Shown here: piece by piece, positions 6,986-41,393 of the stretch
Numbering within the stretch: the first letter of the stretch is position 1
How the letters are laid out: each line of letters starts with the position of its first letter
NCBI RefSeq assembly: GCF_004010195.1
Contig: NC_057719.1
Span: 19,100,198-19,141,590, forward strand
Direction of reading: 5' to 3'
Source of the DNA: Chiloscyllium plagiosum
Taxonomy: Eukaryota
DNA length: 41,393 bases
Made by a program: the position numbers and the translations under genes
Notes under the pieces: generated by a model
The model's database searches: none
Told to the model about the DNA's origin: nothing
Seen by the model: the letters and a program-made list of their open reading frames with translations, nothing else

Positions 6986-7303
6986 ATTAGATTAGATTAG
7001 ATTAGATTAGATTACAGTGTGGAAACAGGCCCTGCGGGCCAACAAGTCCACACCGACCCGCCAAAGCGCAACCCACCCATACATTTACCCCTTACCTAAC
7101 ACTACGGGAAATTTAGCATGGCCAATTCACCTGACCTGCACATCTTTGGACTGTGGGAGGAAACCGGAGCACCCGAAGGAAACCCACGCAGACACGGGGA
7201 GAACGTGCAAACTCTACACAGTCAGTTGCCTGAGGTGGGAATTGAACCCGGGTCTCTGGCGCTGTGAGGCAGCAGTGCTAACCGTTGTGCCACCGTGCCA
7301 CCC
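6986..7303 (-). mobile_element. HE1-type SINE, full length
   Basis: Reverse-complement near-copy of 13785-14100, with a (CTAAT)5 tail at 6986-7010. Confidence 0.93.
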
Positions 7304-7439: not shown

Positions 7440-8600
7440 TGTCACCATTCAGTTCATTATCTGCCTGCCTTTTTGGAACCAAAGTGGATAACCTGACATT
7501 TATCCACATTATACTGCATCAGTCATGTACTTACTTAACTTGTTCAAATCACACTGAAACACTTCTGCATCCTCCTCCCAGCATATCCTCCCAACCAACC
7601 TCGTGTCATCAGAAAATGTGGAGATATGGCATGTTTATTCCTCATCTAAGTCAGCAATATGTATCATGAACAGATGGATCCAAGCACTGACACCTCACTA
7701 GTTACTGTCTGCCACTTGGAAAAATATTTATTTTTTCCGAATGTTTGCTTTCAGTCTGCCAACTAATCCTCAATCTATTTCAGTCCATGACCCCCAATCC
7801 CAGTTTATATGCTGATCTCAAATGTGGGATCTTATCAAAAGTCACATCCATTGGCTCCCCACTCTACCATTTACATCCTCAAAACATTTCAGCAGATTTG
7901 TCAAGCACAGTTTCCCCTTTGTAAATCCATGCTGAGTCTGTCAGATCTTGCCACGATCTTCCAGAGTTCTACTATTACAACTTTTATAATGAACTGTAAC
8001 ATTTTTTCCATTTCCAATGGCAAGGTAACTTATCTATAGTTTGTTGATTCTCCTGTGCCTCTCTTCTTAAATAATGGGGTCACATCAGCTACACTCCCAC
8101 CCATAGGAACAGTTCCAGAGTGTATAGAATTTTAGAAGATGACTACTAGCGCATTTACTATTTCTAGGGCCACTTCTTTAAGTACTTTGAGATAAAGCTA
8201 ATCACGCCCTGGGGATTTATTTATCTTTAATCCTGTTAGTTGATTCAATACATTTTCCCTTCTCATATTAATTTCTTTCAATTTCTCCTTCCCATTAGAC
8301 TCTGTGTTCCTGTATTTTTGTGATGTTATTTGTTATAAATTATAAACTCCCTTGTTTCTGACTGAAGGGGACGTCTGTTCATTTTTACTAATCTTTATCT
8401 CTTCACATACCTGTGAAAGCTTTTATTATAAGTTTGTATGTTCCCTGCAAGAGTTTTCTCATACTCTATTTTTCCTGTATTAATCAACGTCGTTGCGTCC
8501 CTTGGCTGAAATCTAAACTGTTTCCAATCCCATTTTGGTCAATATGCTTGTCTTTCCCATGGATGTGATACTTTCCATAATTTTTATTGTTAAACAAGTA
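7440..8600 (-). mobile_element. Old CR1 LINE ORF2 fragment
   Basis: Degraded minus-strand motifs (KSPGRD, GKLCLTNLLKCFEDVN, WMQYNVDKCQVIHFGSK). Boundaries approximate. Confidence 0.75.
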
Positions 8601-9521
8601 TCTGACTGCTGATTGTCATATTATGTGCTTGCTGAATCAAGCACTTTTATTTGGGATGGAATGTTTCCACCAATCCTGGGTCTAGGAGCACGTTTATGAA
8701 ATAGTGATAGAGGCATAGTGATGTAATGCAACAGGTATTCACTTTTTAAGTGACAATTGCATGATAGCGTTAGGTATAAATTCAATTGGCTGGTTAGGCA
8801 TACTTACAAAGCCTATCAGGGACCAGAGGTAACACTTGACGTCATTGGGATTAAGAGCTGTACCATTCTTTTCACAACCCACCTGGGAAATGATCACATT
8901 GGATGGAGCTGAAAACAATTGCCAACACTAACTCCTTCAGAACTATTACCTTCTACAACAGAACAAACTTTAAATAATCTTGATTGTAGGAAGGAGGCAG
9001 AATTTGATTCTGGTAATCATCTAATATTGTTCATCATAAATATTTCACTGTTGCATCTTGTGCAACTTCATCAGACTTTTGCTCAGTGATCAGCTCCTCT
9101 CCTGACTATATATGTGTCTCTATTTACGTTACGTACCTTATTTGAGAAAGCACACAAAGTTTGAAATGAAGGTTTTGGCTGAATCAGTGATGAAACATTG
9201 GCCCTTTACAGATTTAATATTTCACTAAGTAATGACTGTGAAAGATACTTGCAGACTGATCCATCAATCAAACAAGATGACAAATCAACATCAAATGTTA
9301 AATGTCAAGTATATTAACTATTTCAGGAATGTTATATTGGTCAAGACTACATGAACATGAGTGCTGGTAACAATCAATAGATTTTACACGGTAATGTTCT
9401 ATGCTCAAGCCTGGATAATCCTAATGATGCAATTACAACAGTTCATAAAAGGTGCAGTGCAAGGAAGGACAGACAACTAAGCTGCACAAACCTGACTACT
9501 TCAGTGTTGCAATTCGATTTC

Positions 9522-9960
9522 ATAGAACATAGAACATAGAAGAATACAGCGCAGTACAGGCCCTTTGGCCCTCGATGTTGCGCCGATCCAAGCCCACCTA
9601 ACCTATACTAACCCACTATCCTCCATATACCTATCCAATTCCCGCTTAAATGCCCATAAAGAGGGGGAGTCCACCACTGCTACTGGCAGGGCATTCTATG
9701 AACTTACGACTCGCTGAGTGAAGGACCTACCCCTAACATCAGTCCTATATCTACTCCCCCTTAATTTAAAGCTATGCCCCCTTGTAATACCCGACTCCAT
9801 ACGCGGGAAAAGGTTCACACTGTCAGCCCTATCTAACCCCCTAATCATCTTGTACACCTCAGTCAAGTCACCCCTAAACCTTCTTTTCTCTAATGAAAAC
9901 AGCCCCAAGTGTCTCAGTCTTTCCTCATACGATCTTCCTTCCATACCAGGCAACATCCTG
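9522..9960 (-). mobile_element. Young 5'-truncated CR1 LINE
   Basis: Open ORF2 C-terminus RMLPGMEGRSYEERLRHLGLFSLEKRRFRGDLTEVYKMIRGLDR, (TTCTATG)n tail, TSD GATTTC (9516-9521, 9960-9965). Confidence 0.93.
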
Positions 9961-13480: not shown

Positions 13481-13524
13481 CAACTGTGAGTTATCTAATG
13501 GACTGCATTGTTAACTAGTGGAAC

Positions 13525-14200
13525 AGATGGCGCGTCAGTGGTAACTGACTATTCTTCCACAGCCCCAGAATAATATCTGAATCCCACCAATGCACATGGC
13601 GACCCTTGAAATAATTAAACATCTGGAATTAGCTGAACAGTGATCACATAACTATTACTGATTGTGATGAAAACCTATCTGGTTCATGAGTGTAGGGAAC
13701 AAAATTTAGTAAAAGACATCCACCACCCTGTCTGGATTAGCTTAGCTATGACTCCAGACCCACAACAATGTAATTGATTTGTAAGGGCGGCACGGTGGCA
13801 CAGTGGTTAGCACTGCTGCCTCACAGCGCCAGAGACCTGGGTTCAATTCCCGCCTCAGGCGACTGACTGTGTGGAGTTTGCACGTTCTCCCCGTGTCTGC
13901 GTGGGTTTCCTCCGGGTGCTCCGGTTTCCTCCCCCAGTCCAAAGATGTGTAGGTCAGGTGAATTGGACATGCTAAATTGCCTGTAGTGTTCGGTAAGGGG
14001 TAAATGTAGGGGTATGGGTGGGTTGCGCTTCGGCGGGGCGGTGTGGACTTGTTGGGCCGAAGGGCCTGTTTCCACACTGTAAGTAATCTAATCTAATCTA
14101 AAAACTGTCCTCTGAAATGACCTAACAAGCCATTCAGTTCTCGGGCAATTAAGAATGGGCAATAAATACTGGTCTAGGCAGAGATTCTTACATCTCAAAT
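13525..14200 (+). mobile_element. Old tRNA-headed SINE, interrupted by HE1 at 13785-14100
   Basis: TGGCGCG..AGTGGTAA head, GAATCCCACCA, ATCTGGAATT, ATCTGGTTCA, GACTCCAGACCCACAACAATGT | CTGTCCTCTGAAATGACCTAACAAGCCATTCAGTT-CTCGGGCAATTAAGAATGGGCAATAAAT. The two halves match the two ends of the LINE at 22942-26921. Confidence 0.8.
13785..14100 (+). mobile_element. HE1-type SINE, full length and CpG-rich (young)
   Basis: Intact A/B boxes, V-domain, CR1-type tail and (TAATC)3. Confidence 0.95.
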
Positions 14201-14599
14201 TCAAAGTTTGATCCATCTTAGAGGCTTGGTCTGAAAAGACACACTATCTACTGTCAGATTTAAATATTTATATAAAATTGTAATCATCAATTAAATGGAC
14301 TCTTTTTAATCCTTCAAATTAAAATATGTAGTTTTGTTAGGCATAAATATTAGGGTTTCTCAACACTTATGTATCCATACTTCACAAAAAAAAGCTTGCA
14401 TTCTTAATTAAAAGAGAGAAACAATGCAGTGTGGCATGTAGAGTATCCTCATTATTTTAATGTAGGTACAAAGTAATTCAGCAAAAGGTTATTTGCATCT
14501 CAGTGAAAACTTGTTAGAATCTGTGTAACCATACCAGAAAATATACCTTAATCTTGATTATTAGTTATACATGTATATCTGTACTGTTTGTATCCATAC

Positions 14600-14860
14600 T
14601 CTCTCTGTACTGAGTTCCATGTACCTATCACTCTGCTGTTAAAGAAACTGCTGTTCAGAACTCCCCAGTCAATTTCAGGCAGACCAGCCTATATAGATAA
14701 GCTCTAGTTTTGCTTTTCCTCAAAGAGAAAACATTCTTTTTGTGTCCATCAGAACCTTTTGTGATTTTAAAGACTCTTATTAGGCCAACACTTTGCCTTC
14801 TCTTTTCAAAAGAAAATGGGTGCATTTTGCTTATCCTTTCCTGCTCAGTTTAATCTCATA
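14600..14860 (-). repeat. Old CR1 fragment; block A of a local duplication
   Basis: Colinear with 16030-16275, sharing TTCAGAACTCCCC, TATAGATAAGCTCT, GAAAACATTCT, GATTTTAAAGACT and TATCCTTTCCTGCTCAGTTT. Confidence 0.7.
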
Positions 14861-15731
14861 TTGTAAAATTCATATTGTGTTTAACAACCATAGAATGAGA
14901 CTTAATTTATATATTTCCAGTTGTTGGTTTAATTGTTGATTTTCACCTGAATAAACAAAGCAATTGGATTTATTGAGGTCAGAATACTGAAGGCATTTAA
15001 CAGAAATGTCAATGGAGTTTAGTGTTCTGGATGGGGAAGATCAATTTATCCAAAGGACCTTTCTTGTAGGGAATGATCCTGCATCTTTTTAGCTGGAATT
15101 ATCATATATGAGGGAACCAAAATTAATAGTTTCTTAAATAATGTTGTAAACTTTATCAAAAATAGCATCCCCTCATCCAAAAACTTGTAAAATTAGAAAT
15201 TCTTCCTTTATTACAGAAAGATGCCGGAATCAATGTGAACTTGCTACAGGTTCATTAGATTTTCAAAAATACAATATAGATTTCCTTCATCAGATTTCAC
15301 ACCTGCCTCTGCTTATTTTGCCTGCTTTTTCACTTCTAGTGGAATAAACCCTCATCAGTTGAGATCCATAAGTTGTTTTATGTTTTGGAAGCTGTTAGTC
15401 TGCCACCCAGAGTCAAACTAAAATTGATGGAATTATTTTTTTCTCTGTTTTGAATGTGCTGACAGATTGGAATGAGAACAAAGCATTTCTCAGAACTCCA
15501 CCAGGGGTCTATGACATGTCACTCAATGCTTTCTGCTCCTGTCTTCAAAGCAATCTCATCCAAACTGATCAACATTCGTGTTCTTTAAAATGATTGTTTC
15601 TTTACTGTATTTTAATGGAATCAATTCTATGACAATTGGCTTTGCCGAACGGACACCAAAGGAGGCTATGTGCCTCACACATCCATCTACCCTCTGTGAG
15701 GAATACTCCTGGTCATTTAATGTTTCATTTG

Positions 15732-15895
15732 TCAATTCAATCTTTTGGCAGGGTAAACATAATGTGATTACAGATACTGCAACAAATGTGTACCATTATT
15801 GGAAATATTCTGACAAAATCGGTGTATTAGAATTGCACAAGCAAAGCTAAACGTGTCATTTGACCAGTATTTATCTTTACTCCAGATGGATATTT
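15732..15895 (+). repeat. Direct repeat block B
   Basis: Colinear with 16395-16548 (TCAATTCAATCTTTTGGCAGG, TACCATTATTGGAAATA, TCTTTACTCCAGAT). Confidence 0.85.
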
Positions 15896-15904
15896 AGCTC
15901 TTTA

Positions 15905-16355
15905 CATATCTCATCTCATTCTTCCTCAGCTAACTATCAATGTAAACCACTATTCCTTTCTCCTTCATGTATCTGTCTTGCCTTCCACTAAATATATCTG
16001 TTCTCTTTCTATCCACTATTCTGTCTGTAGTGGGTTCCATGCTTTCATCGCTCTATGAATAAAGATACTTCTCTTCAGAACTCCCCATTAGATTTCTTGC
16101 TGACATCTTGTATAGATAAGCTCTGGTTTTGCTTTTGCTCACAAGTGAAAACATTCTCTTTGTGTCCAGCAAAACCTTTAGAGATTTTAAAGACTTTTAC
16201 TGGGTCATCGCTTTGCCTTATTTTTTCAAAAGGATACAATGTGTTCTATTTATCCTTTCCTGCTCAGTTTATCCTCACAGTTCTGGTATAATTGTGTAAT
16301 TCCTTTTTGCAACCCATATTGTTTCTGTAGTAAGGTAACCAGAACTGCACACAGT
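15905..16355 (-). mobile_element. Old CR1 3' fragment (contains block A')
   Basis: Degraded ORF2 C-terminus ending at ACCAGAACTGCACACAGT (CVQFW on the minus strand). Confidence 0.7.
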
Positions 16356-16394
16356 CAGAATTTTCTTGGATATACTTGCCAGGCAAAATTCTTT

Positions 16395-16548
16395 TCAATT
16401 CAATCTTTTGGCAGGTAAACATTATGTGATTGGAGATACTACAACAAGTTTATACCATTATTGGAAATACTGTTATATTAAAATTACATAAGCAAAACAG
16501 AAATGTCATTTTGACCGGTATTTGTCTTTACTCCAGATAAAATTATTT
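16395..16548 (+). repeat. Direct repeat block B'
   Basis: Second copy of 15732-15895. Confidence 0.85.
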
Positions 16549-16821: not shown

Positions 16822-17208
16822 TAAAAATCACAGAGCACCAGATTGGAGTCCAACAGGTTTATTTGGAAGCATTAGCTTTCGGAGCGCTGCTCCTTCATCA
16901 GGTACCTGTGGAGTATAAGACCTTAAGGCACAGAATTTATAGCAAAAGTTTACAGTGTGATGTAACTGAAATGATATATTGAAAAAGACCTGTATTGCTT
17001 GTTATCTTTAATAATATCAGCATCATGCTGGAAACTTTTGCTATAAATTCTGTGTTTTACGATCTCATACTCCACAACCACTTGATGAAGGAGCAGTGCT
17101 CCAAAAACTAGTGCTTCCTAAATAAATCTGTTGGATTATAACCCTGTGTTGTGTGATTTTTAACTTTGTACACACCAGTCCAACACCGGCATCTCCAAAT
17201 CATGACTA
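16822..17208. mobile_element. Penelope-like insertion (family A) with ~125-bp inverted arms and two hammerhead copies
   Basis: Arms 16824-16950 and 17034-17161. Hammerhead motifs at 16870-16904 (minus, core intact) and 17079-17113 (plus, core mutated). Imperfect flanking repeat CTATCAAAATTC/CTATGTCAATTC. Confidence 0.8.
16870..16904 (-). ncRNA. Minimal type I hammerhead ribozyme motif
   Basis: UAC-CUGAUGA-A-GGAGC-AGC-GCUCC-GAAA-GCUA-AUG: intact core, perfect 5-bp stem II, AGCU palindrome, CUA triplet. Stem I is damaged. Confidence 0.65.
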
Positions 17209-17750: not shown

Positions 17751-17971
17751 CATAGAAACCCTACAATGTGGAAAAAGGCCATTCAGCCCAGCAAAGAACA
17801 TTCCATCCAATCCCTATGGCAATACATCTAATCTATACATTCTTGGACTGTGGGAGAAAAACCTACACAAACACAAAATGTAAACTCCACACAGTTCCAC
17901 AAGGGTGGAACTGAACCCAGGTCCCTAGCACTGTAAGGCAGCAGTGCTAACCACTGAGCCACCATGTCACC
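17751..17971 (-). mobile_element. Degraded, internally deleted HE1-type SINE
   Basis: GGACTGTGGGAGAAAA, AAACTCCACACAG and GAACCCAGGTCCCTAGCACTGTAAGGCAGCAGTGCTAACCACTGAGCCACC. Confidence 0.85.
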
Positions 17972-20802: not shown

Positions 20803-21984
20803 TCATAGAACATTACAGCACAGTACAGGCCCTTCTCCCTTTGATGTTGTGCTGACTTGTGGAACCAATTTGAAGCCTATCTATCTTCCACTATTCCATT
20901 TTCATCTATTTGTTTATCCAATGACCATTTAAATGCTCTTAAAGTTGGTGAGTCTACTACTGTTGCAGGCAGTGTGTTCCACGCCACTCCTACTCTCTGA
21001 GTAAAGAAAATACCTCTGACATCTGCCTATATCTATCACGCCTCAATTTAAAGCTATAGCCCCTTGTGCTAGCCATCACCATCTGAGGAAAAAGGCTCTC
21101 ACTGTCTACCCAATCTAACCCTCTGAATTGAGACTTAATATGTCTCAATTAAGTCACCTTTCCACCTTCTTCTCTCTAACGAAAACAGCTTCAAATCCCT
21201 CAGCCTTTCCTCATAAGACCTGCCCTCCAGACCGGGCAACATCCCAGTAAATTTTCTCTGTACCCTTTCCAAAACTTCTACATCCTTCCTATATTGCAGA
21301 GACCAGAACTGTACGCAAGCATGGCCACACGAGAGTTTTGTACAGCTGCAGCATGACTTCGTGGCTCCAACACTCAATCCCTCTACCAATAAAAGCTAAC
21401 ACACTGTACACCTTCTTAACAATCCTGTCAACCTGAGTGGCAACTTCCAGGGATCAATGTACATGGACACCGTGATCTCTCTGCTCATCTACACTACCAA
21501 TAATCTTATCATTAGCCCAGTACTCTGCATTCCTGTTACTCCTGCCAAAGTGAATCACCTCACAATTTTCTGCATTAACGTCCATTTACCACCTCTCAGC
21601 CCAGCTCTGCAGCTTATCTATGTTCCTCTGTAACAACATTCTTCATCACTATCCACAACTCAAACAACCTTAGTGTCATCTGAAAATTTACTAACCCATC
21701 CCTCTATGCCCTCATCCAGGTCATTTATAAAAATGACAAACAGCAGTAGATCCAAAACAGATCCTTGTGGTACACCACTAGTAACTGAACTCCAGGATAG
21801 ACATTTCCCATCAACCACAACCCTGAGTCTTCTTTTAGCTAGCCAATTTCTGATCCAAATCACTAAATCACCCTCAATCCTATGCCTCTGCAATAGCCTA
21901 CCATGGGGAACCTTATCATACGCCTGATGGAAATCCATATACACCATATTAACTGCTTTACCTGCAATCACCTGTTTGGTCACC
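20803..21984 (-). mobile_element. CR1 LINE, 3' ~1.2 kb (RT to tail)
   Basis: [42 protein letters not shown]...[14 protein letters not shown]...LERVQRKFTGMLPGLEGRSYEERL. Confidence 0.95.
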
Positions 21985-22039: not shown

Positions 22040-22831
22040 GTGACACAAGATGTCTGCAATTCTAGTGCATCTTTCCCTAACAGTCAGCAATTGGAAAAGT
22101 CATCGGCAAGGTCCTCCTCAACTATCTCCTCTCTTTAGCTGAGGAAGTCCTTCGAGAGTCGCAGTGTGGCTTTTAGCCTTGGATGGGCAAAACACACATG
22201 ATTTTCACCATGCGACAGCAGCAGGAGAAGTGCAGAGAAAAGATGGCCTTCTTTGACCTTACAAAGGCCTTTGACCCAGTCAATCAGCAAGCATTATGGA
22301 GCGTTCTTCTCTGCTTTGGCTGCACCGTGAAGTTTGTCACCATCCTTTACCTGCTCCACAACAACATGGAAGTTGTGGTAATGACAAATGGCTCCACCAC
22401 TGACCCATTCAGATTGGTATCAAGCAGGGCTGCATCATCACCCCAACACTGTTCTCAATCTGCCTTGCTGCAATGCTTCACCTCACTGGCAACAAGCTCG
22501 TTGCTGGAATGGAGCTATCTAAAGAACCTGTGGGAAATTATTCGACCTCCACTGCCTCCAAACCAAAACCTAAGTCACCCCCAGCAGTGTTACTGAGCTG
22601 CCGATGATGCTTGTCCCTGTGCACTCTCAGGGGACATACTCCAGACCAGTTGCAAATAGCGAAAGGAGTGCGCTGCTACACCAACACTCCCATCCTCACC
22701 TTCCCACAACCACCTTCTGTTCCAAGTGTAACAGGGCCTGCGGTAGCCATTTGGGTGCCACCTCAGGACTCACCCTGAGAAGGGAAGAGAGTCATTCTCA
22801 TCTGTCAGGACCGCCAATGGTTATGATGATG
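22040..22831 (+). mobile_element. RTE-clade LINE fragment, internally deleted
   Basis: GKVIGKVLLNYLLSLAEEVLRESQCGF*...MIFTMRQQQEKCRE...FFDLTKAFD, GIKQGC, C-terminal CSKCNRACGSHLG finger, (TGA)n tail. Confidence 0.9.
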
Positions 22832-23169
22832 CATTTTTCCTTCTGTATATTAATGATGTACAATGTCAATGATTGTCTGACTGGACTATTCCTGTTAAGA
22901 TCCTGAATCCATACTGTCTCACCTTGTTCCAGAGGTGGTGGTTTTTTAAAAATTCACTCATGCGAAGTGGGCATCACTGACTGGGCCGACATTTATTGCC
23001 CATCCCTATTTGCCCTTGAGAAGTTGATAATGAACTGCCTCTTGAACCATTGCAATCCATGTGCTGTATGTTGACGCACATAGCCATTAGGGAGAAAATT
23101 CTAAGATTTTGATCTGTTACTGAAGATCAGAGGTAAAGGAAGTGGACAATTGTGGATAATATGCCACTC

Positions 23170-23440
23170 ATTAGGACAGAGATGAGGAGAAACTTCTTCA
23201 CCCAGAGAGTGGTGGCTGTGTGGAATGCTCTGCCCCAGAGGGCAGTGGAGGCCCAGTCTCTGGATTAATTTAAGAAAGAGTTGGATAGAGCTCTCAAGCA
23301 TAGTGGAATCAAGGGTTATGGAGATAAGGCAGGAACAGGATACTGATTAAGAATGAATAGCCATGATCGTATTGAATGGTGGTGCAGGCTCGAAGTGCAG
23401 AATGGCCTATTCCTGCACCTATTGTCTATTGTCTATTGTC
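23170..23440 (+). mobile_element. CR1 3' fragment nested in the tRNA-headed LINE
   Basis: RTEMRRNFFTQRVVAVWNALPQRAVEAQSL and a (CTATTGT)3 tail. Confidence 0.92.
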
Positions 23441-25527
23441 AAACAGGCTGCTTTGTCCTGGCTGGTGTCAAGTTTCTTGAATATTGTTTGAGCTGCACTC
23501 ATCCAGACAAGTGAGGAGTAGTCCATCACACTTGTGCTTTGCAGATTATGAGCACTCTCTGGGGAATGGGGTGGGTTACTCACTACAGTTTTCCAAGCCT
23601 CTGACCTGCTCTTGTAGATGTTGTATTTATAAGGATAGTCCAGTTGAGTTTCTGGTCAATGCTTTCCTCCAGGATGTTGATAGGGGTGGAGGGGAGGGAG
23701 GGAATTCAAGATTCACAATAACATTGAATGTCAAGGGGTAATGTTTAGATTGTCTCTTTTTGGAGATGATCATTGCCTAGCATTTGTATGTCACAAATGT
23801 CAATTGGCACTTTTCATTTCAAACTGGGATATTGGTCGTTTTGCACTTGTACAGAGACTGCTTCAGCATAGGAGGAGTTGCAATTGGTGCTGAACATAGT
23901 GCAAACAGCAGCAAACAGGGAGGGAAGGTCATGGATGAAGCAGCTAAAGATGGGTGGACCTAGGAACTAGGAACGTTGAGGAACTGAGATGATGGACCTC
24001 AAATGATCATAGCCAGTTTCCTTTGTGCCAAGTGTGACTCAAGGGAGTTTTCTCCCGATTCCTATGACTCCAGTTTTGCTAGGGCTCCTTGATGCTACAC
24101 TCAGTCAAATGCAGTCTTGATGTCAACTGCTGTCACTTTTATCTCATCTAGAATTCAGCCCTTTAGCCCATATTTGAACTAAGGTTGTAATGAGGTCAGG
24201 AGCTCAGTGGACCTGGTAGAATCCAAACTGGGCAGCAGCAAAAAGATCATTGCTGAGGGGATGCAGCTTGATAGCACTGTTGATGACATTTTCCATCATT
24301 TACTGATGGGAGAGTAGACTAATAGTGTGGTAATTGACAGGATTGGCTTTATCTTGCTTTTTTTATGTACGGGACATACCTGGGCATTTTTTCACATTGT
24401 CAGCTAAATGCCAGTGCTGCAGCTACACTGGAACAGCTTGGCTAGGCTTGTGGCAAGTTCTGGAGCACAGGTCTTCAGTAATGTTACTGGAGTGTTTCAG
24501 GGCCGATAGCCTTTGCAGTATCCGGTGCCTCTACATGACACTTCTGGCTGAAGATTGCTGCGATGCTTCAGCCTTATCTTTTGCAAAGATGTGCTGGGCT
24601 CTCCTATCATTGAGGCTGGAGATATTTGTGGAGCCTCTTCCTCCACACAGTTGTTTAATTGTTCACCACTATACGTGGCTGGATGTGGCAAGACTACAGA
24701 GCTCAGATCTGATCCATTGGCTTTGAATCACTTAGCTTTGCATCATTTGCTTATTGTTTGGTATGAAAGTAGTCCCATTTTGTGGCTTCACCATGTTGAC
24801 ACATCATTTTTAGGTATACCTGCTACTGCTCCTGACATGCGCTCCTGCATTCTTCATTGATCCTTGAGGTAGATGTGGGATCTGCCAGGGCAAGAGGTTA
24901 AAGATTGAGTTGGAGTACAATTCTGCTGCTGCTGACATTCCATGTTGCCTCATCGATACCCAGTTTTATGTTGCTAGATCTCTTCTAAGAGTATGCCATT
25001 TAGCACAATGATGGTGTCACACTATATGATGGAGAATGTTCTCAATGTGAAGGCAGAGCTTTGTCTCCATAAGGAATATGTATTGGTCATCCTATCAATA
25101 TTATCATGGATATTTGCAACAGGTAAATTTGTGAGGATGAGGTCAAGTATGTTTTTAATTCTTATTGGCTCCCTCATCCCCTGCACCATTCCAGACTTGC
25201 AGCACTATCTTTTAGGGCTTGATCAGTTCAATTAGCAGTGGTGCTGTCAAAACATTCATTGTGGTAGAAACATTAGTCTCCCACTCAGAGTACATTTTGT
25301 GCCCTGGCCATCCTCAATGTTCCCTCAAAGCAGTGTTCTATGTGGAGGAACACTGGTTCATCAGCCAAAGATGGATGGGAATAAGCTTGAGACTCCATGG
25401 GATCCTGAGGACTCCAAAGGCAGGTCCCTCCTAACTGTCTACCTTTGTGCAACCACATCTGCTCAGGGATGGTGATGGTGATGTCTAGGACATTGTCTGC
25501 ACAGAATGATTCCATAAGTCTGACAAT

Positions 25528-26478
25528 TGTTACAATAGAGGGATAGCAAACCAGACCAAATCAGATTTGCCAACACTGGATATTGCAACACAGTGGAAGT
25601 AAAATATTCCATGGCCATGAAAATTGCCCAATTGTTCCTAACCAGACTTTATGAATGACCAATATAATTTTATAGCTCAAACAGGAATTGCCGATTTGTT
25701 ATTAATACTGGAAGTTTAGCGAAGTTTAAAAAAAGTAACCTAATTAATTTAACCCAATTTCTTCCATCATAACTTACACAGACAGATAAACAGACTGGCA
25801 GATACAGTTAAGGGATCATTTAAAAGAGAAGTAGAAAAGTTGTAACTGGCCTGTTCACTTAAGCAGCCTCACCGATAAATACCCGGCCTTTGGTAAAATT
25901 CCATGAACGACGTGTTGTATTACACATACGTGGGATTGTATCTCACTTGAATTCTGAAATCACTGGTCAATGCAAATAGCTTCTAGCAAGGTCCAAGAAA
26001 TATTCACTAATTTCTTATAAATTCAGATTATTTTCTCAGAATTTTCAAGAAGTCAATAACTGGACATAAACTGGAGAATAGCCAAAATTCTGTCCAGTAG
26101 CTTTCAGACGCACTGCCTTCTGCCTAATAAAAAATGACCAAAACCAATTCAATCTTTGTTTTCTCTTTCTTTATTTTACAAATTCACTTTGTTTCATTGG
26201 TTGGCAGTGATCTCCCTTTCAATGACCCTTTTAACGTCCAAGCAGCTGCCAATGCTTGAGTTAATGCATCTCAGATGCCAAGATATCTACAGTGTCTTAG
26301 GTCAGCAACTAGCCTGCAACTTTGCATATTAGTTCGCATTAATAAATATCAGTTTGAATGTCTTCCTTTTATTTCAAATCAAGCTGCTGCTCAAAATCCA
26401 AAATTCAACTCTTAACTTTAGCTCACAGTTCCAAACCAAAAATGGGAAAATAAAGAAGAAACAGTGATGGTCGCAGCA
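25528..26478. mobile_element. Solo LTR (951 bp) nested in the LINE endonuclease region
   Basis: Starts TGTTAC and ends GCAGCA (degenerate GTAACA). 4-bp TSD CAAT/CTAT (25524-25527, 26479-26482). LINE-like sequence resumes on both sides. Confidence 0.65.
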
Positions 26479-26996
26479 CTATATTTGGCTTTGACTTTCC
26501 TTGTTAATGTGGCAGCTCTCCCCATTTTGGAACAGTTTGCAGGGTTGATAGAGCGGTGTTTGACACTGAATATCTGGGACCTAGATCGATGCCAGGTGAT
26601 TGTCCACAATTTCATTACTTTTTGAGACTCCCTCGCCTTCTTATAACTTAGTGGCTTGCTAGGCCAGATCAGAGGGCAGCTAGAGTCAACCACATTGGTT
26701 TGGAGTTACGTGAGGGTGGCAGTTTCCTTCCTTAAGTAGTATCAACATAACCAGATTTTATTTTTCCAACAATTGGCAATGGTCGTCATTTGATTTGTAA
26801 TTCCAGTTTCCTTTTAATTAAATACAAATTTCGTTCTCTGTCATGGTGGGATTCAGGTCCCTTGAACATTAACTGGGTCTCGAGATTACTAGTCCAGTGA
26901 TAATAACACTGCACCATTGCCTTCCCAATGGTCGCAAAACCATTCGGTTTAATTAGTTGCTTGTTGCTGACAAAATTTCAGTTCATTACAATAAGT

Positions 26997-27118
26997 TTGA
27001 TAAGGTTCCCCATGGTAGACTACTGCAAAAATGTAGGTTAGGTGGGCTTGGATCGGCGCAACATCGAGGGCCGAAGGGCCTGTACTGCGCTGTATTGTTC
27101 TATGTTCTATGTTCTATG
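26997..27118 (+). mobile_element. Chimeric mini-CR1: RT-internal fragment joined to the 3' tail
   Basis: TTTGATAAGGTTCCCCATGGTAGACTACTGCAAAAA ([12 protein letters not shown]) directly precedes a tail nearly identical to 9522-9606. TSD TAAGT (26992-26996, 27119-27123). Confidence 0.85.
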
Positions 27119-27500
27119 TAAGTGTGATTTAAACTCATGGGACTTGTTTGTGGAGTCAGTCACTTCAGAATTGTTGTGTCTCACTATAGATATGCATTTT
27201 ATTTTTCAGGGGCATGGTCTTGAGTATATGACATGAACACACAAAGTAGATAGATTAGGTATTACCTAATGTATCTCTAAGTCAGAGCTGGTTTTATATA
27301 TATATATGAATAATATTATTTGTTACCGTAGTTAATATTAAGATTATTCTCCATTTGGAAGACAACTGAATAATTCCTCCAAATAGTTAATATCAGAAGT
27401 ATCCACTGATCACTCAGTAGTGAAAGGTTAATGCACACCAATGAATTCAAGTGGTATATTTCTTCTCGTATGCTTCTGAGATGTATGAATTCTCCCTCTT

Positions 27501-27810
27501 ATAGAGCCATAGAGGCATACAACATGGAAACAGACCCTTCAGTCCAACCCATTCATCCCAACCATGTTACCAAACTAAACTGAACCCACCTGCCTGTATT
27601 TGGCCCATATCCCTCCAAATCTTTCCTTTTCATAAACTTATCCAAATGTCTTTTAAACATTATAACTGTACCTTCATCCATCACTTCCTCTGGCAGTTCA
27701 TTCCACACACTAACCACTCTCTGAGTAAAAAAGTTACCCCTTTTTACAGCTTTCTCATCTTAAAAATATGCCCATTAGTGTAGAATTTCCCACCTTAGAG
27801 AAAAGACATT
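27501..27810 (-). mobile_element. CR1/HER1 3' fragment
   Basis: ATAGAGCCATAGAG...CATGGAAACAGACCCTTCAGTCCAACC tail. Homologous to 32417-32790. Confidence 0.88.
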
Positions 27811-28060: not shown

Positions 28061-29171
28061 TATTTTTAGATTACTCTCAGTATTCCTTTAATTTTGAGTG
28101 GCATTCTGCTTCTATCATGCAGAACAGTTATAGTTTCATTATCTTCACCCAAGTTTTTTTTTTCATTTTAGCAATAATATTCACCTAGTCTCAAGTTTAA
28201 AATGAGGTGGCTGATATTTAAGTGTCTGATCTGTGTTATACCTGTTTCAGAGTCATGTATAACTTCTAAGAATGATTCATATCTTCTAAAGCAGGTATAT
28301 CATCACAAAATGATATAATGTCTAATGAAAGTGTGTGTTCTGGGTTTTCTTCCAATGATACTCATTGAAAGATGTTAACCTTATTTTGTGCATTAGCAAT
28401 TTAATTTTGTAGTTTAATTATTGCTTTTGACTCTTGCATTTTTTTGGAAAAGTCTCACTTATTTTACAAGAGTTACATTGTAATGATAAAGCAAGACTTT
28501 GCTTCAGTTTATGTGGTATCATAACTCCACATCTGGAACAGTAATTTCTAGCATAGCAAGATTTAAAGATGTTTTGTGTTGGTCTACCCTGTGGTGCTTT
28601 TTGTACTCTTCAAATCTGATGAGTTTCATATGTTAGGTTGGCTACATTCTGGTGTTATTTCAGAATGTCAGCTTGAACTACCCACTGGATAGCTTTCTCC
28701 AATGTGAAATCATCTTTGTATTGCTGTATGTCTGAAAGAGATCAATTAGCAATTTTGTCGATAATTCAGACTTGGATTAGTTCTTACTGTAAACACAAAA
28801 TTCTGAAAACGTGTAAAGATCACTAAGGAAACTGTCAACAGATTTCCCTAAAAAGCTGTATTTTTCTGTTGAATCTTGCTCTCTCTATTTATGCTCGGTA
28901 CTAGATGTTAACTAATTGTCAAATGCTCTTGAAATATTACTAAAGACGTCTTCTCTTATGTTTTGTTTTAAAATATGATTTGAAAGCAAACCTACTCTGA
29001 CCCTTCTCTGGATTCCTTGTGTAATCCTGAAGTAATGCATGAATTGTCTCCTCCATAAAGTCAAGTTCAATCCCTCTCTGATGGATTTCTGGGTTTGAAT
29101 CAGAATAAAGGTGTAATATCTTTCTCCATTATAATTGTATTTTAAATGTGGTTTTGTCTCTTATAAAATCA

Positions 29172-30230
29172 AAGAGACATATAGAATGGGAACAGACCCT
29201 TTGGTCCAAACACTCTATGCTGACTATGTTCCCAAACCAAACTAGTCCCATCTGCCTATGCTGGCCCCACATCCCTCCAAACCTTTTCTATTCATGCACT
29301 TATCCAAATCTCTGTTAAGTGTTGTAACTGTATCTGCATCCAACACTACATCTGATAGTTCATTCCACACACGAACCACTTTCTGAGTAAAAAGGTTGCC
29401 CCTCATGCCCTTTCAAAATTTTTCTCCTCTCACAAGTACGCTCCCTAGTTTTGAACTCCCCACCCCAGAGAAAAGACCCTTCTCATTCATCATACCTATG
29501 CCCCTTGTGATTTTATAACCTCAATAATGTCACACCTCAACCTCCCATGTTCCAGTGAAAAAAGTCCCCCCAGCCTCTCCTTATAACTCAAACCCACCGT
29601 TCCCAGCAACATCCTGGCAAATGTTTTCTGAACCCTTTCCAGTTTAATAATATCCTTCCTATAACAGGTCTGCACACTACTCCAGAAGAGGCCTCATGGA
29701 CATCCTGGAAAATCTTAAATATGATGTCACAACTCTTGTACTCAAATGTCTGAGCAATAAGGCAAGCAGTCTAAATGGCTTCTTAACCACCCTGTCCACT
29801 TGTGGCACACATTTCAAAGAATTGTTTACCTGAACCCCAAGGTCGCTCTGTTCTATCCAGAGCCCTACCATTAATTGTATAAGTCCTGTTCTTATTTGTA
29901 TTACCAAAATGTAACATCTCTCATTTATCCAAAAGTTTAAAAATATTAAACTCCATCTGCCACTCCTCAGCCCATTGACCTAACTGATCTTTGTAATCTT
30001 AATTTGGAGGTGCCAGTGTTGGACTGGGATGCACAAAGGTAAAAATGACACAACACCAGGTTATAGTCCAACAGGTTTATTTGGAAGCACTAGCTTTTGG
30101 ACACCGCTCCTTCATCAGATGACTGATGGTGACCGAAAGCTCTGAAAGTTAGTGCTTCCAAATAAACCTGTTGGACTATAACCTGGTGTTGTGTGATTTT
30201 TAACTTTGTAATCTTAAATAACCTTCTTCA
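29172..30230 (-). mobile_element. CR1 LINE 3' fragment, interrupted by a Penelope-like insertion
   Basis: DLGVQVNNSLKCVPQVDRVVKKPF...RPLLE (ORF 29677-29907) and a HER1-type tail. Confidence 0.88.
30003..30203. mobile_element. Penelope-like insertion (family A), near-perfect hairpin
   Basis: ~65-bp inverted arms around a CATCAG-ATGA-CTGATG centre. Perfect 14-bp direct repeat CTTTGTAATCTTAA (29989-30002, 30204-30217). Degenerate hammerhead cores on both arms. Confidence 0.82.
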
Positions 30231-30552: not shown

Positions 30553-31329
30553 ATAGATCATAGAACATCGAACATTGCAGCGCAGTACAGGCCCTTCGGC
30601 CTCGATGTTGCGCTGACCTGTGGAACCAATCTGAAGCCGATCTAACCTACACTATTCCATTTGCATCCACATGTTTATCCAATGACTATTTAAATTCCCT
30701 TAAAGTTGGTGAGTCTACTCCTGTTGCAGGTAGTGCATTCCACACCGCCAGTACTCTCTGAGTAAAGAAAATACCTCTGACATCTGTCCTGTATCTATTC
30801 ATCCCTCAATTTAAAGTTATGTCCCGTTGTGCTAGCCATCACCACCTAAGGAAAAAGGTTCTCACTGTCCACCCTTTCTAACACTCTGATTATCTTATAT
30901 GTCTCAATTAAGTCACCTGTCCATCTTCTCTCTAACAAAAACAGCCTCAAGTCCCTCAGCCTTTCCTGATAAGACTTTCCCTCCATACCAGGTAACATCC
31001 TAGTAAATCTCCTCTGAACCCTTTCCAAAGCTTCCACATCCTTTCTATAATAGTGACCAGAACTGTATACAAAACTCCAAATGTGGCCACACCAGAGTTT
31101 TGTACAGCTGCAGCATGACCTCGTGACTCTGAAATTCAATGTCTCTATCAATAAAAGCTAACACACCGAATGCCTTCTTAACAACCCTATCACCCTGGGT
31201 GGCAACTTTCAGGAATCTATGTACATGGAGACCAAGATCTTTCTGCTTATCTACACTACCAAGAATCTTACCATTAACCCAGTACTCTTTATTTCTGTTG
31301 CTCCTTCCAAAGTGAATCACCTCACACTT
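30553..31329 (-). mobile_element. CR1 LINE 3' fragment
   Basis: IHFGRSNRNKEYWVNGKILGSV..QKDLGLHVHRFLK and RKDVEALERVQRRFTRMLPGMEG. Same subfamily as 20803-21984. Confidence 0.94.
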
Positions 31330-32416
31330 GTAATTTGGGACATCTTAAGTGCATTCACCACCACTAATCTTTCCTTTTGGCATTAGTCTAAGTTACTAAT
31401 ACCATGTGTACAAAGATGCCTACATGAGCTCTCAGATAGGAGGCTCAGCATTGATAAACAATAATTGGGTTTATTACATATTACTCAATAGCTAGTTACA
31501 TAATATCCAAGATATATGATTTTTTCTTATGAAACATTGGGCTCAACCTAGGAGTAAGTACACATTCCTGCTTTATTTCCATGCCATTAATGCTAAGATG
31601 AATCACTGAAGCACTGGTAGAACAAATGGATAAAGCCTTGAAGTTTTCCAGTAACAAGTTGTATATACTGAAGGGCAAAGATGATCTTTTGATCACAATT
31701 AACGCTTTCAGATCCTAAATCCCTCTGACAGCAGTTGGCATCTTTTGGTATCTACTATCTTTACTAGAGTGTAGTACTGGGTCAGTGTGGTTTAATTGTG
31801 CTCACTGCCATCAGTTCACCATTGTCCTTGCTTTGTTTTGGTCCAAGTTAATGTCAGTGGTGGACAATATGCCACCAAAAACATCTGCTAAAGACACCCC
31901 GTTCTTAGATAAATCAGAAATTTATTGCATACAAGCAATCAGTGCTGCAACATGTGGCCAGGCACAATTCCTAAAAAATTCAAGAACCCGGTACAGGTAC
32001 ATCTACAACATCTGAAAGTCAGAGAAGGATTCCCTGTCTCCACCTATAGACTGTATGTGATAGCCATAGAATGGGTGGAACCAATGTAATATTACCATTC
32101 AACCCCTTCAGAACCATTACTTCATGCAACATCCTCCAGACTTTGCTGAGATATCTTGGATGCTACACACATGAAGCATTCTGCATTGTTAATACTTCCA
32201 ATGCTACTGTATGTTCAGGCACACACTATTTCTGCTCAAAAGGGTAAGCACCCTTTTTCTGGCTGTCTGCCAATGACACTCTATAGTTGACCTGCTAGGA
32301 GATGCAAAATAATGAGCTGAACTTCCTCCTATTCTGGTTTTTGTGTATGTTATGTCACAAGAACAAACCATTTAGCTTCATATGGTTCAGATTTGTCTTT
32401 GCTACAATTACTTACA

Positions 32417-33182
32417 GTCATAGAGTCATAGAGATGTACAGCATGGAAACAGACCCTTCGGTCCAACCCGTCCATGCCGACCAGATATCCCAACCCAATC
32501 TAGTCCCACCTGCCAGCACCCGGCCCATATCCCTCCAAACCCTTCCTATTAATATACCCATCCAAATGCCTCTTAAATGTTGCAATTGTACCACTTCCTC
32601 TGGCAGCTCATTCCATATACGTACCACCCGCTGTGTGAAAAGGTTGCTCCTTAGGTCTCTTTTATAGCTTTCCCCTCCTGTGTGAAAAGGTTGCTCCTTA
32701 GGTCTCTTTTATAGCTTTCCCCTCTCACCCTAAACCTATGCCTTCTAGTTCTGGACTCCCCGACCGCAGGGAAAATACTTTACCTATTTATCCTATCCAT
32801 GCCCCTCATAATTTTGTAAACATCTATAAGGTCACCCCTCAGCCTCCGACGCTCCAGGGAAAAAAGCCCCAGTCTTTTCAGCCTCTCCCTGTAGCTCAAA
32901 TCCTCCAATCCTCCTTGTAAATATTTTTGGAACCCTTTCAAGTTTCACAACATCTTTCTGATAGGAAGGAGACTAGAGTTGCAAGCAATATTCCAACAGT
33001 GGCCTAACAGCCGCAACATGACCTCCCAACTCCTGTACTCAATACTCTGACCAATAAAAGAAAGCATACCAAATGCCTTCTTCACTATCCTATCTACCTG
33101 CGACTCCACTTTCAAGGAGCTATGAACCTGCACTCCAAGGTCTCTTTGTTCAGCAACACTCCCTAGGACCTTACCATTAAGT
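32417..33182 (-). mobile_element. CR1/HER1 LINE 3' fragment
   Basis: QVHSSLKVESQVDRIVKKAFGMLSFIGQSIEYRSWEVMLRL and a (CTATGACT)n tail. Confidence 0.94.
32631..32724. repeat. Perfect 47-bp tandem duplication within CR1
   Basis: CTGTGTGAAAAGGTTGCTCCTTAGGTCTCTTTTATAGCTTTCCCCTC x2 (32631-32677, 32678-32724). Confidence 0.95.
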
Positions 33183-40299: not shown

Positions 40300-41052
40300 G
40301 TTCCAATTGTCACAGAGCAGGGCAGCTTCGGAATGTCAGCTCTCATCTGGGTGTACAGCTGCCTTTTAAATACAGAGTAGGTGCCGGGGGTGCTGGTGAG
40401 AAGCATCACTTGGATAGAGGCACCCATTTGGAGAGGTAACATACCCCCTTTGATGTGGTCCTGGGATACTTTTGAGATCTATCACACCCTTTTGAAGGCA
40501 CCTCTTTTGACAGAAGGATTGCCCCAAGAAGAATTCTCAGGATGTTGAAGAACTGTTAAAGGTGTCAAAAGTTGCCAAGATGCCAAAGGAGGAAGGAAAA
40601 AGGCAAAATTGAGCCCCTGGATTGGAATGAATTGGCAATAAAAAGTATAAAAGATCATGGGCATGGAAGACTATGTTAGCATGTGGGTATGAGGGGTCAT
40701 AGAGGAAAGGTTGGAGTTACAGGATGGTTTTGATGGGCTTGGCTGTGGGGAGAAGGATGATATGGAGAGTCCATGAAGAGTGGTTACAGGGGAGTAGGGA
40801 TGAGGTTGAGCAAATGGGCATAGGTTGCAGTATGTAAAAGGGAGATTTGGGAGGTACAGGGCTACGACATAGCACAGGTGGAACTGGATATGCCGTTGGT
40901 AGTCTGCATCGGGCGGGGTGATGGTTGTGATAAATGAGGGCTGCAGGACTGTCAATTCTTTTAATTAATCTAAAAGATAATTTCAAGACAGTCACAGGCA
41001 GGCCATCTGCAACTCACAGCCTCTGCACTCCTCTGTGATTACTCAGACCACC

Positions 41053-41393
41053 TAGAGTCATAGAGTCATAGAGATGTACAGGATGGAAACAGACCCTTCA
41101 GTCCAACCCGTCCATGCTGACCAGATATCCCAATCCAATCTAGTCCCACCTGCCAGCACCCGGCCCATATCCCTCCAAACCCTTCCTATTCATATACCCA
41201 TCCAAATGCCCCTTAAATGTTGCAATTGTACCAGCCTCCACCACATCCTCTGGCAGGTCGTTCCATACACATACCACCCTCTGCATGAAAAACTTGCCCC
41301 TTAGATCTCTTTTATATCTTTCCCCTCTCACTCTAAACCTATGCCCTCGAGTTCTGGACTCCCTGACCCCAGGGAAAAGACTTTGTCTATTTA
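41053..41393 (-). mobile_element. CR1/HER1 3' end, truncated by the window
   Basis: RGERYKRDLRGKFFMQRVVCVWNDLPEDVVEAGTIATFKGHLDGYMNRKGLEGYG. Highly similar to 32417-32790. Confidence 0.95.

Follow-up and report, generated by a model that had tools for sequence, protein, structure and literature searches.

A decayed LINE of the CR1 group without ORF1, a member of the elasmobranch Zenon family, was identified on the minus strand (22942-26926) of the window, i.e. the whole stretch of 41,393 nt that was analysed (repeat-rich eukaryotic DNA, 40% GC). It begins with a tRNA-like head, and the same head with its body, joined to the end of the LINE, makes up a short form on the plus strand (13518-14196); in the window each of the two forms is represented by a single dead copy. 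The two were read together as the outcome of a captured tRNA-derived head that would act as an internal promoter and of one jump that would have produced a SINE, an account to which a probability of roughly 0.6 was given. The head is a family-wide feature of Zenon that is apparently unremarked in print; it is made of known parts and has partial precedents.

SINEs and LINEs are usually divided by promoter: non-coding SINEs carry a tRNA head read by Pol III, and coding LINEs depend on Pol II or on host transcription. A LINE family with a tRNA head since before the shark-ray split would blur this divide, would provide a one-step route to a new SINE whose 'body' has a concrete origin, the LINE's own 5′ UTR, and would offer a natural system for the old question of whether a Pol III RNA can be the mRNA for a protein of roughly 1,000 residues. 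Repeat libraries will split headed Zenons into a 'SINE' beside a 'truncated LINE'.

Layout and decay of the Zenon copy

Two insertions break the copy up, one solo-LTR-like and the other a fragment of CR1. Read along the minus strand, it starts with the tRNA-like head (26841-26926), which contains an A-box-like motif at 26906-26916 and a decayed B box at about 26844-26860 and of which the words CACTGGACTAGTAATC and GAATCCCACCATG were present in published Zenon heads. The 5′ UTR body (26645-26840), in common with the SINE up to AGTT, was delimited by alignment with the SINE and by window words present in seven and in five consensuses. A LINE-only leader with a conserved ATG at 26615 and the start of the endonuclease (26479-26644) were placed by word matches to published consensuses (ATCACCTGGCATCGA in RhiTyp_Zenon-1, ACCCTGCAAA in HypSab_Zenon-1 and GGGAGAGCTG in SquAca_Zenon-3). 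The endonuclease is split by the solo-LTR-like insert of 951 nt (25528-26478, given without strand), which has TG..CA ends and a 4-nt duplication (ATAG/ATTG, one mismatch). The decayed endonuclease, linker and reverse transcriptase (23441-25527) with many stops, frameshifts and deletions are followed by a nested 3′ fragment of what we take to be a CR1-type LINE (23170-23440, plus strand, opposite to Zenon; very high contig depth, loose ends at 23171) and by the ORF end (stop at 23006-23008), a 3′ UTR of about 65 nt and a short A tail (22942-23169), the same end being present in the contigs of other copies. Of a poly(A) tail, the window copy shows only a short, decayed stretch of A (22942-22947). 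All motifs quoted for the LINE and the SINE in the initial annotation were present at their positions, and the nested LTR and CR1 that it had proposed are real.

An APE endonuclease and an RT lie in one ORF, without ORF1. From the head end (26645) past the next ATG (26615) to the EN motif, which begins near 26540, there are about 105 nt, so that there is no room for ORF1, as had been claimed; this absence is normal for all Zenons. After removal of both inserts the copy measures 2,755 nt, about 500 nt less than the five longest consensuses (3,244-3,314 nt). It is dead, and the term 'autonomous LINE' used for it at first does not apply. No target-site duplication was found in the window for the Zenon LINE or for the short form.

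One contig spanned 24534-26790 with one difference (its read run is possibly related to the source assembly). Another, from organism B, covered 25465-26958 (48 differences, 32 gap letters). The arrangement including the insert is therefore real and not a misassembly and, being the same in organism B, is older than the split from it; the LTR-like insert was present at the orthologous site of organism B in read contigs too. Contigs related to this insert were of low depth compared with the LINE, which marks a rarer family.

A profile built on 11 relatives matched remnants of EN, of the linker, of RT and of the C-terminal part, in this order, from 25210 to 23437 on the minus strand (best piece 73 bits). 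EN pieces 3′ of the LTR-like insert reached z 4.1-8.5 against relatives, and for the EN piece 5′ of it z exceeded 3.5 in 0 of 15 frame-by-protein comparisons. The window Zenon pieces on their own had no Pfam match (0/8, then 0/1), and two of three word-based protein searches, which included the N-terminal frame in other copies, were without match. The proteins nearest to the window RT were of shark and ray origin (Heterodontus, Heptranchias, Pristiophorus, Rhincodon, Mobula). For the phylogenetic placement suggested in the initial annotation, 116 sequences passed the filter and a subset of about 55 was used; in this tree, which holds no named Zenon reference, the window RT clustered with five shark/ray proteins (support 1.0), away from the window CR1. 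In-frame Zenon ORF pieces were also seen inside annotated shark/ray host proteins (P0137, P0138, P0141, P0143, P0144, P0145, P0150, P0152) and are either gene-model errors or exonisation.

The tRNA-like head across elasmobranch Zenons

Cataloguing had been left open by the initial annotation; the family to which the window element belongs is already catalogued as elasmobranch Zenon (PMC13343379). Supplementary Table 2 of that paper has 1,004 rows, 10 of them Zenon, and the comparison was performed over the first 400 nt of each row. Over this length, head, body and the same junction were present in 7/7 elasmobranch consensuses from five species (CarCar, HypSab, RhiTyp and ScyCan Zenon-1; SquAca Zenon-1/2/3), the hosts being white shark, whale shark, catshark, stingray and, with three rows, dogfish; the head was absent from the first 400 nt of the three other vertebrate Zenons (two hagfish rows, one coelacanth). 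Exact window words of 10-16 nt matched the consensuses on both sides of the junction; two words occurred only in the whale-shark row, which by exact words is the consensus nearest to the window copy. The count of seven out of seven against none out of three supports the head as a family feature, so that the head-EN junction is not a chance SINE insertion, and the refuting case named at the outset, a junction at this locus only, fails on the consensuses of five species.

The read contigs by themselves would not have revealed this. At 80% likeness, those from other copies were deep over tail, interior and head, but not over the junction bin 26475-26625 (depth 31 and 19). Thin coverage is expected there because the window copy has many indels in this bin and the threshold was 80%; the family status of the junction hence rests on the published consensuses.

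Zenons are described as having a poly(A) tail and no ORF1 (PMC13343379), and the copies with intact ORF2 in Table 3 of the same paper number 0/2,313, 1/1,419 (Rhincodon), 3/612 (Hypanus), 0/59, 0/396 and 1/294 (one cell garbled). The window copy shares with the published family the head, the body, the junction, the single EN-RT ORF without ORF1 and possibly the A tail, and differs in being about 500 nt shorter and dead. The available text of the paper describes neither a tRNA-like head nor a short form, and in the main text the terms tRNA, promoter and polymerase III occur 0 times. Elasmobranch Zenon is also treated in a preprint (10.64898/2026.01.13.699120). An RTEX clade identity, our first guess, was dropped after the paper and the consensus comparison showed Zenon.

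Among distant relatives, 27 of 80 loci had an EN start and at least 350 nt upstream of it; upstream of EN, a paired A and B box was found in 0/27 and an ARAGORN tRNA in 0/27. The one relaxed match close upstream of EN (locus L051) was read and is not a head. These loci, which are 23-43% identical and not all Zenons, suggest that the tRNA-like head is lineage-limited. The head pattern had 0 matches in viral, metagenome and prokaryote collections.

The consensus heads have an A-box-like motif that begins around base 10, and their B box is found around base 70. Five canonical B-box variants matched 3 of the 1,004 CR1-group rows, all three of them elasmobranch Zenons, and a sixth variant, picked after the rows had been viewed, matched the three Squalus Zenons; over the seven consensuses the B box is thus clear in three, variant in three (Squalus) and degenerate in one (HypSab, stingray). 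By eye, the white-shark and catshark heads form a perfect 5-bp stem whose 7-nt loop takes the anticodon position; next comes a hairpin like a long variable arm, a layout that we liken to class II (Leu/Ser) tRNAs. In five orders the head stands at base 1 of a single-ORF LINE, and elasmobranch Zenon has retained it in all five.

In the window, the B box of both copies (LINE and short form) is decayed, with nothing within two mismatches. ARAGORN, run on the whole window, called no tRNA, and Rfam analysis of 26400-27000 gave no tRNA and five weak matches, all far below the gathering score; of these, a match to skipping-rope was rejected (17 vs 36.7 bits). This match sits at the shared body end (26643-26740, minus strand), which can form a hairpin; the hairpin of the window copy was not above shuffles, and the stretch is nearly invariant over the seven consensuses. 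Folding of six window pieces gave 0/6 better than shuffles (z -0.94 to +0.80).

Proposed transcription and translation of headed Zenons

Before the shark-ray split, a single-ORF Zenon would have acquired a head of tRNA derivation together with a body of about 230 nt as its 5′ UTR, most likely via a template switch onto tRNA or SINE RNA. The head probably became, through its A and B boxes, an internal promoter that is copied along with the element. That Pol III makes the full 3.3-kb coding RNA appears possible at somewhat less than even odds, and the remainder of the promoter reading would be taken by a Pol II transcript from the same start place. The degenerate HypSab and the variant Squalus B boxes count against the promoter reading, as does the consideration that a tRNA head could stay on a LINE simply by being carried along.

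Transcript features were analysed for runs of at least four T on the sense strand, a check suggested in the initial annotation. Over 2,747 nt the window Zenon has 3 such runs where 5.1 would be expected; the depletion is not significant, and the figure is uninformative in a decayed copy. In the first 400 nt of the seven consensuses none was seen, about one being expected by chance. No RNA data set was listed as containing the head-EN junction. From a polyA single-cell RNA run, 1,291 reads were placed on the sequence, 97% of them continuing into unlike sequence, and no common transcript start was seen in this run, which says nothing about the polymerase.

An ATG 24-32 nt past the head end is kept in 6/7 elasmobranch Zenon consensuses (by eye). 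The stingray consensus is the sole row that can be read from this ATG as far as the first EN motif; there, by eye, EN lies in a frame shifted by -1, which reads an Arg-rich leader without Met. The relatives P0028 and P0142 have basic leaders ahead of the same EN motif. Judged from these sequences, the odds are about even that the conserved ATG is out of frame with EN, and a non-AUG start would then be a lead; the distance between ATG and EN varies modulo three, and one wrong base in the consensus would undo the lead, as an additional A in the run ahead of the EN motif would bring the ATG into frame.

The farthest-reaching proposal, that Pol III transcribes the Zenon coding RNA from a captured tRNA promoter and that this RNA is translated without a normal cap or in-frame AUG, is rather doubtful. 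Translation of this kind might rely on ribosome entry at the 230-nt body, or on a -1 shift out of a short frame that lies upstream. If true, a Pol III-made Zenon mRNA would join SINE-type transcription to LINE-type coding, and true SINEs would arise by a single deletion.

In another explanation, which we regard as unlikely but as the foremost of the rivals, the head is a passenger or a module without promoter function. A template switch would have added it, and it would have been retained for the sake of RNA stability or structure; Pol II would make the coding RNA, starting in the body or at host promoters in the flanks, and only the short form would be transcribed by Pol III. In its favour, a 3.3-kb Pol III mRNA would be without a normal cap, and the B boxes differ between species. 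Small-RNA heads without internal promoter are found on the U1/U2-headed Tx1 LINEs (PMC4494074), and Persaeus, a Zenon derivative, spread without a Pol III promoter (PMC6740152). A passenger head is harder to reconcile with the A-box-like motif, the B box and their spacing, which are kept over four shark orders (the ray B box being degenerate), and with the position of the head at base 1 of every elasmobranch consensus, no other promoter-like leader standing before it.

Two known systems are among the closest to the headed Zenon. The Tx1-Mar LINEs and SINEU of crocodilians have a U1/U2 small-RNA head common to the LINE and its partner SINEs, but they belong to the Tx1 clade, their snRNA heads contain no internal promoter and Pol III is excluded for most SINEU (PMC4494074). 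RTE-1_DAn and related elements are ORF1-less LINEs with a tRNA-like sequence that matches many tRNA SINEs; unlike Zenon they belong to the RTE clade, and in the available text neither the position and function of the tRNA-like sequence nor a derivative SINE is reported (PMC5786205).

The shark Zenon head was without description in the literature searched, a body of text outside Repbase, Dfam, SINEBase and most subscription journals. Six window motifs searched in literature text matched only an unrelated maize paper, and the available supplement of PMC5786205 had no match to the Zenon head or short form.

The short form and its probable derivation

In the short form (13518-14196, plus strand; about 362 nt once its insert is removed), head and body run up to a joint at 14139, where the final codons of the LINE and its 3′ UTR follow. 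Nested in it is a younger, unrelated tRNA SINE (13785-14101, plus strand), assigned by its A and B box match and by the window copies at 2645-2944 and 6992-7303, to which it is 88-92% identical. We take this SINE and its family to be HE1-type; copies with recognisable A and B boxes lie at 2639-2944, 6992-7303, 13785-14101 and 17859-17971, and the first three, which are long, are 87-92% alike.

With 13785-14101 left out, the short form and the LINE head were identical at 189 of 258 aligned positions, with 66 gap positions (z 17.9, 500 shuffles). The tails were identical at 45 of 60 positions (z 11.6), so that the 3′ tail is common to the short form and its partner LINE; plain self-BLAST at E<=1e-4 reported neither the head nor the tail pairing. 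The LINE ORF stops at 23006-23008, which leaves the short form with a few final codons and the 3′ UTR. Only 0-1 nt belong to neither head nor tail, and the short form is hence made wholly of LINE 5′ and 3′ ends, as in a SIDE or bipartite element. In a second short-form contig, from another read run, 23017 was joined to 26645 with one letter between, 3 nt further along; two short-form joints were seen among those listed (15 of 2,462 joints; 12 of 173 such rows).

The sequence layout favours the short form as an internal-deletion derivative of the Zenon family. The initial annotation had proposed one internal deletion at a TT microhomology: the deletion layout stands, with 0-1 nt between the parts, and the TT microhomology is unconfirmed, as the 1-2 nt by which the parts overlap where they meet are at chance level and differ between the two examples. 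By eye, the body of the window SINE is like the dogfish (Squalus) version and that of the window LINE like the whale-shark version, so that the SINE was derived from the family and not, as had been held, from this LINE copy. In the proposed route, the EN-RT protein would copy the RNA from the 3′ UTR and A tail by target-primed reverse transcription, the mechanism established for LINEs, and a jump that leaves the last codons and lands where the 5′ UTR ends would give a head-plus-tail element of ~360 nt, a layout that is seen and a direction that we infer. The product would have promoter and recognition tail at once and would thus be a SINE in one step.

Persaeus of Lepidoptera, a SIDE, is likewise a non-autonomous Zenon deletion derivative with Zenon 5′ and 3′ ends (PMC6740152), which supports a Zenon-derived deletion origin of the short form. 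It is stated to be without tRNA, 5S or 7S homology and without Pol III promoter, and it keeps the ORF start (PMC6740152), whereas in the shark short form the break lies about 30 nt ahead of the ATG. The bipartite SINEs Bov-tA and AfroSINE also combine a tRNA head with LINE 5′ and 3′ parts, but in these it was the deleted derivative that received the head, and the LINE is headless (PMC5786205), whereas the shark Zenon LINE itself is headed. Zenon-tailed SINEs are known (PMC6685494, PMC11481361), and CORE and Deu SINEs with L2 tails have been described (PMC5499810). A Meta domain as the short-form body (MetaSINE, with a 66-bp Meta after the head) was rejected, as no likeness to the available bivalve Meta alignments was seen (PMC4824008; by eye only).

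The reverse order, in which a tRNA SINE already provided with a Zenon tail gave head and body to the LINE and the short form is the parent, was considered improbable. Tail capture and module exchange are common among SINEs, and the short form is old, the window SINE body being nearer to the Squalus version by eye; the donor would need a switch that lands within 0-1 nt of its own body/tail border, which makes deletion the simpler reading, and a matching SINE was not found in the literature and supplements searched. A one-off chimera of a SINE fragment beside a 5′-truncated LINE at this locus, with which the low paralogue coverage of the junction bin in read contigs would agree, is very improbable and is refuted by the same junction in all seven consensuses and by window words on both sides of it, unless the consensuses are SINE/LINE mosaics.

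The remainder of the window contains further repeats. A separate RT remnant, presumably RTE-like by its motifs, lies just beyond the Zenon 3′ end (22096-22469, plus strand; Pfam RVT_1, E 1.8e-5). CR1-type LINE fragments were seen at 34-408, 7973-8323, 9518-9959, 20804-21965, 26995-27121 (about 70 nt upstream of the Zenon head), 27496-27807, 29158-29853, 30553-31329, 32410-33180 and 41050-41393. Two related palindromic elements (16822-17162 and 30033-30209; 77-81% self-complementary), with partial copies at 2217-2404, form a MITE-like or hairpin repeat family, and local direct duplications (14574-14858 / 15993-16277 and 15729-15887 / 16392-16538) are about 78% alike.
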